Origin: Octopus vulgaris
Lineage: Eukaryota
Reading direction: 5' to 3'
Length of the DNA stretch: 64,000 nt
NCBI GenBank assembly: GCA_951406725.2
Contig: OX597820.1
Coordinates: 20,832,001-20,896,000, forward strand
Both the position numbers and the translations under genes were made by a program. Below, one piece after another: positions 30,066-33,426 of this stretch. The notes below the pieces were generated by a model. That model saw only the letters and a list, made by a program, of their open reading frames with translations. It made no database searches and was not told the origin of the DNA. The first letter of the stretch is position 1. Each line of letters starts with the position of its first letter.

Positions 30066-30734
30066 TATGTGAATAATGAATTGTGTCAAATGAATGAGAG
30101 ACGATGTTGTAGAGTATATGGTTTATTAAAATTGAATGTTTATTTTGCAATCTGATTTTCATGCCGCTGTGGATTTCAGGCATGAACATTCTCACCTGAA
30201 GATTGCAGTGGCATGAAACTTGAAGAGTGAGATAACCATTCAGTTTTGATAAACTACATTAAGATACATTGTTGTCTGAGTATAAGGATCATAGATTGAC
30301 ACTATATGAAAGACAGAGTTTATGATCCATGCTTACACGGATATTACATGTATAGATTTCTAGTTGACAGGTAAATGTTTCCATTGGAACAAAAACTATC
30401 ATCATCCAATTTACATTACACAACACAATCTTGATTCTGTTTTGCCTTTTTTTTTCAACAAATATTGTGAGGTGAGATCAAAAGGAAAATAAGAGAAAAA
30501 TTAATGAAGAAATATATAGAAATATTCCAGTTTGTTTTTGACATCTGATATGTTATCAAGGATATTTCTAAAATACAAACCCCAATGAGTGTCAAGAAAT
30601 AATATTTGTTTAAAAAAAAAGGAAAAAAGGGGAAAAAGATAAAGAAAAAATGTTTGATGATAATTAAACATAGAACTACATATAAAGTTACAATTATCTT
30701 TCATGATACTATTTTTGAAATATTAAAATGATAT

Positions 30735-31035
30735 AAACAGTTGCAGTGTGGAAGGTGTTTATAAGCCATTTAAGAAACACACAAAAACCGTTAGATTCAC
30801 TTCAACATTTAAATTTAATTTGCCAAAATATTTTCGCCGCTTTGAGATCGCGACCTGTTCACTGACAAAACTCCGTGCTGTATCATTTGACAAATTAAAT
30901 TTAAATGTTGAAGTGAATTTAACGGTTTTTGCATGTTTCTTAAATGGCTTATAAACACCTTCTACGCAGCAATTGTTTTCGTTCCAGCACGCAATCTCAG
31001 ATCAGGTCACTTGCTATGCAAGTATATCTCCGTAA
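30735..31035. mobile_element. Penelope-like inverted terminal structure (arms 30735-30827 and 30886-30979)
   Basis: About 93-bp inverted arms around a hammerhead-like core; right arm extends further; PLE identity inferred. Confidence 0.6.
30819..30869 (-). ncRNA. Candidate minimal type I hammerhead ribozyme with G3:C8 core
   Basis: Minus strand: uuuguca-GUGAACA-g-gucgc[gaucucaaa]gcggc-GAAA-auau-UU-uggcaaa; 7-bp stem I, 5-bp stem II, one-bp stem III with palindromic loop. Confidence 0.6.
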
Positions 31036-32208
31036 AATAATATAAACTTTTATCAATAAATTGAATAAAGAATTCAAATTTTTTTGTTTTAATTAAAATT
31101 AATGAGATTCTGATAATGTCATAGACTTTTCTCTTTCGTCCTCAAAGATCATCTCCAATAAAATGCAGTGTTGAATTCTATCTGAAATGCTGTTTATAGT
31201 AGGAAGACAGGTTTATAAAATGCTCAGCTTCTTCTGTGATGCCATTTTCATTGAAGGAGTAAATATTTGCATAAGTTTTAAATGCTTATCATAATAAGAA
31301 ATGCAATACAGAAATGCATAAGGGACTCTCATTTCTGAGCATTGTCAAAAATGTTTCATCATAACAAATATAGTTATTCCCCTTGATTAAAAGAAATCCA
31401 CTTAAAAGCTCCAGCATATGAAACTGCCGGATCTGTTCAGGTTTGGGCACAGATTTTTTAATTAAATTTTTTTTAACTAAACAGATTGAGACATCGTATA
31501 CTGGTGGTGACATTTAGTAGAGATGACCCAGAAGTTGTTCCTCTTCAATTACTATCACAAACAGCAGTAGCTTTCTTCAGCTGGATACACATTGTTGACT
31601 GGTTGAAATTACCCAAAGACAACTTTAACACAAAATAACTTTTAAAATATCAAATTTTATCAAAAATGGTCAAAGTAAACCATGTTCTGTGTGAGACATT
31701 CCACCAGTATACAAAATTTCAAACTGTTTAGTCAAAAGACATTAATTAAAAAAAATCTGTGAGCCAAATCAAACAGATCCAAACTGCTTCTCTAGGAAAA
31801 TGAATTCTTAAAATTTAGGGACACTTAATACACACATGCACTCAAATATATACACACATGGTATTATATACATCTTTTTTTTTCTAATTTTAAAGAAAGA
31901 GAAATTCAATATCCACGTTTCTTTAAACAACTTGATTTTTACTAATAATCAGTCACATTATTTGTCTTTAAGAAAACCATAAATAAGGATGAATGCTTGC
32001 AAAGTATTTCTGTCAGTAATATGCACTGATAAAAGTTATTTAATAAATGCAGAATGGGTTTCATATTTACATTTCCTAACCCAGGTGCTGGTTTATTTAG
32101 AAGACTGTTTATTTTTTTATTTTCCTTGATTAAAAATTTTTTTTAATCCATTATAAATCTTTGAATATATAACTAAATGAGTTTCTTTTTAACTGGCACT
32201 CTTTGATA

Positions 32209-32714: not shown

Positions 32715-33426
32715 GGATCTTAACCTTTTGACCAACAGATTTTTTAAATAATTTTTCGTAACTAAACACTTTCAAACTTCGGACACTGGTAGAATGTGTC
32801 ATATAAAACATCTTTTACTCTAAGCGTTTTTGAGAAAAACTTATATTTACGAAGTAATTTCACGTCAAAGTAGGCCTATTTCGGTCATTTCAACCAATCA
32901 ATGATGTGTATTCAGCTGAATAAAATTACTGCCATTGTTTGTCAACAACAACTATCGACGTTGTATTTTTCGTTTGTCACTGTTATTTATGACAACCCTA
33001 ACCTTAAAACCATAACCCTAACCCTAAAACCTTAACCTTAACCCTAAAACCCTAACCCTAAAACCTTAACCCTAACCCTAGCCCTAAAACCTTAACCTTA
33101 ACCCTAACCCTAAAAATCCTAATCCTAACCCTAAAACCTTAAAGCTAAAACCAGTACAAACGCACGAACGATAAATACACCTCTGATAGTTGTTGCTGAC
33201 AAACAACGGCAGTAATTTTATTCAGCTGAATACACATCATTGATTGGTTGAAATTACCGAGATAGGCCTACTTTGACGTGAAATTACTTCGTAAATATAA
33301 GTTTATCTCAAAAATGCTAAGAGTAAAACATGTTTTATATGACACATTCTACCAGTGTCCAAAGTTTGAAAATGTTTAGTTACAAAAAATTATTTTTAAA
33401 ATCTGTACGTCAAAAGGTAAAGATCC
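32715..33426. mobile_element. Long-TIR MITE (Merlin/MULE-like) with internal telomere-like repeats
   Basis: About 260-bp TIRs GGATCT...AGATCC; flanks gaggtgcag / taggtgcag (9-bp TSD with 1 mismatch); degenerate (TAACCC)n at 32995-33150. Confidence 0.8.

Follow-up and report, generated by a model that had tools for sequence, protein, structure and literature searches.

A hammerhead motif with a G3:C8 core pair, likely compensatory, at the start of an octopus Penelope-like element

Does a hammerhead core that departs from the consensus at two mutually pairing positions mark a ribozyme that still cleaves, or the remains of one that has ceased to? The question is raised by a 51-nt motif on the minus strand of a 64,000-nucleotide stretch of the Octopus vulgaris genome (assembly GCA_951406725.2, contig OX597820.1, positions 20,832,001 to 20,896,000; hereafter the window), in which the canonical CUGANGA string is absent and GUGAACA stands in its place. 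We find that the motif lies in a repeat unit that exists in thousands of copies, with G3:C8 as the family trait, and that this unit is the junction between the pseudo-long terminal repeat (pseudo-LTR) and the start of the open reading frame (ORF) of a Penelope-like element (PLE) with a C-terminal GIY-YIG domain. The identity of the motif as a PLE hammerhead appears nearly certain. The observations are probably best accounted for by an octopus pseudo-LTR hammerhead in which a compensatory G3:C8 pair keeps a weak self-cleavage, assisted by dimer formation or by a protein; that cleavage has been retained in the source elements we hold to be likely, with somewhat less assurance.

The motif is laid out as follows, in window coordinates.

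30819..30869, minus strand: minimal type I hammerhead motif of 51 nt (stem I, core, stem II, GAAA and a short palindromic stem III), read from the sequence, the fold and a descriptor
30856..30862, minus strand: core positions 3-9, GUGAACA, with G3 at 30862 and C8 at 30857, from the sequence and family comparison
30855, minus strand: an additional G that separates positions 9 and 10.1, a trait shared with metazoan PLE minimal hammerheads
30836..30854, minus strand: stem II (5 bp; pairing strands 30854-30850 and 30840-30836) and loop II, in which the subfamilies diverge
30869-30863 with 30825-30819, minus strand: the two strands of stem I (7 bp)
30826..30835, minus strand: GAAA (30835-30832), the palindrome AAUAUU (30832-30827) and U17 (30826), with the predicted cut between 30826 and 30825

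A preliminary description, made from the sequence alone, had proposed this layout and this cut site, and its coordinates were reproduced. It had also given the motif a one-base-pair stem III with a palindromic loop; the palindrome is present, but the stem can reach 2 bp (A15.1-U16.1 and A15.2-U16.2). Positions 3 and 8 form a Watson-Crick pair, with U4, G5, A6 and A9, G12, A13 and A14, and A15.1-U16.1 intact, and the features of PLE minimal hammerheads (the extra nucleotide between 9 and 10.1, G10.1-C11.1 and a palindromic short stem III) are in place. The minimum free energy (MFE) fold contains stems I and II, which form the expected three-way junction with pair probabilities of 0.7-1.0 in the 5' end of the parent element, and two G-U stem pairs of the window copy are A-U in the family majority. 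In cofolds, the AAUAUU palindrome pairs between molecules, yet the MFE structures differ from a clean active dimer. By itself, the energy of the fold does not reach significance (z -1.25; 23/200 shuffles), and an Rfam search of the window region returned 34 matches at E up to 10, none of them to a hammerhead family; an Rfam hammerhead match was also absent for three loci discussed below (L249, L306 and L076). A descriptor that accepts any Watson-Crick pair at 3:8 finds a single site in the whole 64 kb, namely 30819..30869, and matches dinucleotide shuffles in 0/100 cases at strict settings and 9/100 at relaxed settings.

The region that holds the motif is repetitive (746 candidates, of which 40 were scored), which allows the state of the 3:8 pair to be followed across the family. 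A 30-mer query with positions 3 and 8 left free has 1559 exact matches, and a query of 28 nt taken from the 3' part has 4959. States were counted by hand in the first 100 of the 30-mer matches listed, all on C1: 96 are G3/C8, two G3/U8, two U3/C8 and none C3/G8, so that G3/C8 as a family state, which the preliminary description had put forward for checking, holds. Among the non-G3 copies (n=171), neither C3:G8 nor U3:A8 occurs in the first 100 listed, and a C3:G8 subfamily within the family was accordingly not seen there. Copies diverge from the majority sequence by ~3.6%. The two common stem variants both turn U-A into U-G (13/73 and 5/71), and the window copy has both; ten loci that repeat the L033 insertion within a larger repeat were excluded from these counts, as well as from those of copy ends and G3·G8 backgrounds given below. 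This insertion (L033, L034, L041-L043, L052, L054, L058-L061) is a single head-to-head insertion that has been copied as a passenger within a larger dispersed repeat, with flanks 95-99% identical. Two ORF lineages, ~12-15% apart, each carry G3:C8, and in the youngest ORF clade the pair is found in 24/24 rows (22 loci). When old and young subfamily majorities are compared, 0/42 core and stem sites differ, against 5/9 sites in loop II (Fisher p 5e-5) and 9/156 other sites.

The preliminary description had further suggested that the motif might mark an octopus retroelement, and a parent PLE with reverse transcriptase (RT) and GIY-YIG domains was indeed located. In L249, the order is inverted copy, motif, ORF (broken in this locus) and motif, and 4261 bp separate the two motifs; at seven further loci (L256, L257, L262, L269, L271, L273, L275), the 3' end of the unit continues into the ORF. 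The ATG lies at unit position 116 (L249:5334), 56 nt after the cut site. The single ORF contains a PLE-type RT (a DKG-type motif and YVDD, recognized by eye) together with a GIY-YIG match at the C-terminus (E 1.6e-5), as expected of endonuclease-containing (EN+) PLEs; Pfam RVT_1 gave no match to it. The copies likewise have the partial-tandem pseudo-LTRs, inverted 5'-truncated copies, tail and AT-rich or (TA)n targets of EN+ PLEs. In L146, a microsatellite-rich 3' untranslated region (UTR) of ~1 kb joins the GIY-YIG ORF to the unit, and this junction is common to 470 genomic places. Just before the unit (L146:4075-4100 and the 470 places), ACTAAC ... CAG resembles a branch point and 3' splice site, and also an initiator; an intron ending at helix I is described for Drosophila Penelope in PMC4209133.

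Other assignments of the parent were considered. L093, in which a unit fragment lies directly upstream of GIY-YIG, proved to hold a single 5'-truncated copy in an unrelated repeat; L093:935-1375 is itself an element of ~400 bp that exists in multiple copies, has short terminal inverted repeats and lies in (TA)n. Naiad elements have an N-terminal GIY-YIG, and the C-terminal position of the endonuclease (EN) here excludes a Naiad parent. Non-LTR retrozymes consist of non-coding direct tandem units delimited by cleavage sites; here, the unit leads into a PLE with a coding region, and its copies stand alone or in head-to-head arrangement. The sole tandem array seen is in L272, a direct array of at least 7 motif-bearing units of ~170-190 bp with (TA)n between them, which could permit dimers within one transcript.

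The closest protein relative of the parent, P0001 (54%), is assigned to Octopus vulgaris by its source, is encoded at 100% identity in the octopus genome, and leads to a second, young PLE family with open frames up to 1312 aa and copies ~99% identical (L306, L301-L330). The motif of this family is colinear with ours, and its core reads CUGAUGC (C3:G8, C9) in 51/51 matches, from loci that overlap in tandem arrays. In a quick protein tree, the two octopus families are sisters, with a Shimodaira-Hasegawa-like approximate likelihood ratio test (SH-aLRT) value of 100. More distantly, 3/9 metagenome relatives have the motif behind the ORF, with C3:G8 in L351 and L356 and U3:A8 with C9 in L353 (L353:2497); the viral sequence collection contained no relatives. 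A distant PLE family with a 781-aa protein has U3:A8 in 16/17 matches among loci L065-L095. Members of this family (L072, L076, L083) possess a long Cys linker and an ACAUGU palindrome in the U3:A8 hammerhead, and L076 holds a separate canonical C3:G8 motif. All five related lineages that show a motif have a Watson-Crick 3:8 pair. A four-row alignment has double changes at 3:8, at one stem II pair and at 15.2:16.2, with 43/43 cells paired; the 3:8 pair covaries between related families, and each inference of the preliminary description that could be checked held. Because the two octopus families are sisters and the relatives are C3:G8 or U3:A8, G3:C8 is most simply seen as derived, and it is likely a compensatory swap. 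It is possible, although we put this forward only tentatively, that the family is the first natural catalytically active G3:C8 lineage, which would have arisen from a C3:G8 ancestor via a G3·G8 intermediate that persists among the source elements. If so, C:G, U:A and G:C would all have been sampled at 3:8 within one PLE clade, along with C at position 9, and such cores may go unseen in PLE groups called hammerhead-free after CUGANGA-based searches.

The ends of the copies bear on the RNA from which they were made. The repeat unit is ~207 nt long. In a sample of 91 copies retrieved through their 3' part, the start falls at unit positions 1-10 in 45 and at position 60, the cut site, in two; no peak of 5' ends is seen there. 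Most 3' ends (225/249) fall at 143-152 (89 ends) or at 199-207 (136 ends, a few of which continue into the ORF, position 207 being the end of the query), neither of which is the cut site. (TA)n follows 123/218 ends, duplications of at least 8 nt flank 6/37 full-length short copies, and many copies lie in head-to-head pairs, of which one end is short and the other long. Of 40 copies that start with A at position 0 and have no parent sequence upstream, 19 have G at -1, against a background of 15% (p 2e-6; a few rows are non-independent), and the parent has C at this position. An untemplated G before the start is known from the biology of long interspersed nuclear elements (LINEs) as the signature of a reverse-transcribed cap. 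From the cap-type G and the starts at A0, we infer that transcription begins at A0, that the cap is reverse-transcribed, and that the templates are mostly capped, uncleaved RNA. The ends of the copies lend support from a mollusc to the in vitro model in which RT starts internally on uncleaved RNA.

Taken together, these data are compatible with the following scheme. The capped transcript would begin ~16 nt before stem I, and target-primed reverse transcription, starting at one of two internal sites, would usually copy the capped RNA uncleaved. Insertion into AT-rich or (TA)n targets would then yield short and head-to-head copies such as that of the window. Cleavage after U17 would take place only upon AAUAUU-mediated pairing of two motifs or with the protein of the element, as an occasional processing step that is dispensable for insertion. 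In the PLE of the anole, cleavage requires protein, insertion does not require cleavage, and a C3G/G8C double mutant partly restores cleavage (PMC11167929).

Several observations weigh against such retained cleavage, or at least against its being strongly required. The metazoan minimal hammerheads described in the literature are poor cleavers, dimers included (PMC4209133), and the templates were, as argued above, mostly uncleaved. In the older ORF clade, 10 rows comprise 5 intact cores, 4 with G3·G8 and 1 with a change of U4. Among 130 copies not selected on the motif, 10 (~8 of them independent) have C8->G, compared with only 8/1697 for other non-CpG C sites, and G8 occurs in 44 of the first 100 listed among 343 non-C8 matches (hand count). 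By analogy with the C3G single mutant, G3·G8 would be expected to be inactive. Because several subfamily backgrounds carry it, G3·G8 may be recurrent, recombined or an old polymorphism, and a single G3·G8 clade is unsupported. The contrast between 0/42 core and stem sites and 9/156 other sites is not significant (p 0.21), and the core decays in dead copies as fast as the downstream sequence (3.3% vs 3.1%), which is what is expected once a copy has been inserted. The covariation score was reached by 7/500 shuffles, in a four-row alignment to which one family contributes three rows and which amounts effectively to two lineages, and no motif was found in 6/9 metagenome relatives, mostly with short or repetitive flanks.

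Much of this would also fit a vestigial ribozyme, a descendant of a PLE hammerhead that no longer cleaves, in which G3:C8 is tolerated drift and the fold or sequence persists because it serves another role (as 5' UTR structure, in protein binding or as a downstream promoter element) or because the family is young. Mostly uncleaved templates, the excess of G3·G8 on several subfamily backgrounds, core and stems whose conservation does not significantly exceed that of the remaining unit, and insertion without cleavage in the anole PLE (PMC11167929) all speak for it. Hard to explain without selection on the pair, however, are two separate changes that restore exactly 3:8 with the other core positions intact. 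Watson-Crick pairs in all five lineages with a visible motif and G3:C8 throughout the youngest clade also speak against it, and we consider drift in a dead ribozyme rather unlikely. At the opposite extreme, efficient self-cleavage might set the ends of the transposing RNA, as a monomer or a circular, retrozyme-like intermediate. Such a role has been proposed in PMC4209133, and it would suit the ORF flanked by two motifs in L249 and the tandem array in L272, but starts at the cut site are confined to 2/91 copies, 225/249 3' ends lie in the two intervals away from it, and the cap-type G indicates uncleaved templates, which makes this reading very improbable. A chance look-alike within a repeat, for example a miniature inverted-repeat transposable element (MITE), could be suspected from the low fold z-score, the missing Rfam match and the location of the motif in an inverted repeat. 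It is hardly credible given the strict descriptor result, the placement at the pseudo-LTR/ORF junction of a PLE and the colinear hammerheads in the sister family and relatives, and is already refuted by the parent element together with the cross-family covariation. A hammerhead with a compensatory G3:C8 pair and weak, assisted cleavage thus remains the explanation that we prefer.

The window copy itself is a short insertion, composed of the following parts.

30735..30884, minus strand: short PLE copy, unit positions 1-150, bounded by the inferred start of transcription and the first of the two favoured 3' ends
30767..30769, minus strand: the ATG at unit position 116, which in full-length copies is the start codon of the PLE ORF
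30886..31035, plus strand: inverted 5'-truncated partner copy, unit positions 58-207, including the ~57-nt tail
30724..30738, no strand: left copy of a 15-nt AT-rich target-site duplication, with one mismatch, overlapping the element end (by eye)
31033..31047, no strand: right copy of the target-site duplication (by eye)

With its 3' part, the motif belongs to one arm of an inverted repeat of 93 nt, a feature that the preliminary description had overlooked. A MITE reading of this repeat was rejected, its arms being two head-to-head PLE copies with different 3' ends. In a read-through transcript from the inverted arm, stem I is lost (pair probability 0), and in a transcript begun at position 0 it has a pair probability of ~0.5 vs 0.7-1.0 in the parent. 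The window copy is a decayed head-to-head insertion and, on these modelled folds, probably inert. Its probable inertness, the mostly uncleaved templates and the G3·G8 minority had not been anticipated in the preliminary description. From unit position 2 (window 30883), an upstream ORF of ~22 codons spans the hammerhead in the older subfamily. Elsewhere in the window, a second, MITE-like inverted repeat lies at 31429-31780, ~400 bp from the motif, and at 32715-33426 inverted arms of 263 nt (92%) surround a degenerate AACCCT telomere-like tract (32994-33134).

The 3:8 pair sits in the catalytic core, and in the literature searched, G3:C8 is otherwise met only as an engineered partial rescue; it is also an engineered variant in PMC3884650. 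Neither a natural G3:C8 core nor an octopus PLE hammerhead was found in that literature, outside which Lünse et al. 2017 falls, so that any priority would be provisional. A multi-thousand-copy G3:C8 family and its C3:G8 sister constitute a matched natural pair in which selection for PLE hammerhead cleavage can be tested, and descriptors fixed on CUGANGA or UUGANAA undercount hammerheads.

Among known systems, the minimal type I hammerheads that Cervera and de la Peña (2014, PMC4209133) describe from metazoan PLEs resemble the octopus motif: they too lie in the pseudo-LTR, carry an additional nucleotide between 9 and 10.1, pair G10.1 with C11.1, have a short palindromic stem III and commonly U17, and occur mostly as solo or opposite-strand copies. 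They differ in having C3:G8, or U3:A8 in Schistosoma, where the octopus family has G3:C8, and the stem I of the Schistosoma families is 4-5 bp long as opposed to 7 bp. The natural U3:A8 cores of Perreault et al. 2011 (PMC3088659) also document compensatory covariation at 3:8, but the available text gives U3-A8 only, whereas G3:C8 needs two transversions and puts a purine at position 3. The Poseidon element PAc of Anolis carolinensis (Frangieh et al. 2024, PMC11167929) has a hammerhead at the pseudo-LTR/ORF junction, AT-rich targets, two internal RT starts that give the tail, and uncleaved RNA as the main template. In PAc, C3:G8 is the natural state and G3:C8 the engineered rescue, the ORF starts inside the hammerhead rather than 56 nt past the cut site, and the tail is of the 30-40 bp class vs ~57 nt in the octopus PLE. 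The octopus parent has a Cys-rich linker, and Penelope and Poseidon are without one. Nematis and Neptune (Craig et al. 2021, PMC8557442) have such a linker, and they also agree with the octopus PLE in (TA)n bias, in a C-terminal GIY-YIG whose Cys and His are of CCHH type, and in copies that are inverted and 5'-truncated; the tail matches what that paper describes for PLEs. The region between RT motifs A and B' in L243:2471-5470 (minus strand) and in P0001-P0083 carries a long insertion that resembles the Naiad/Chlamys and telomerase insertion-in-fingers region. The octopus linker is short as in Nematis (CX2-5CxxC before the EN, here CxxC, 7 aa, C, an arrangement also found in the Nematis rows of Fig. 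S2), but Nematis lacks an insertion between motifs A and B', and the spacing of 130 aa in the octopus parent (126-134 aa in the 52/83 homologs P0001-P0083 with both motifs found) far exceeds that of the Nematis and Neptune rows in Fig. S1 (PMC8557442).
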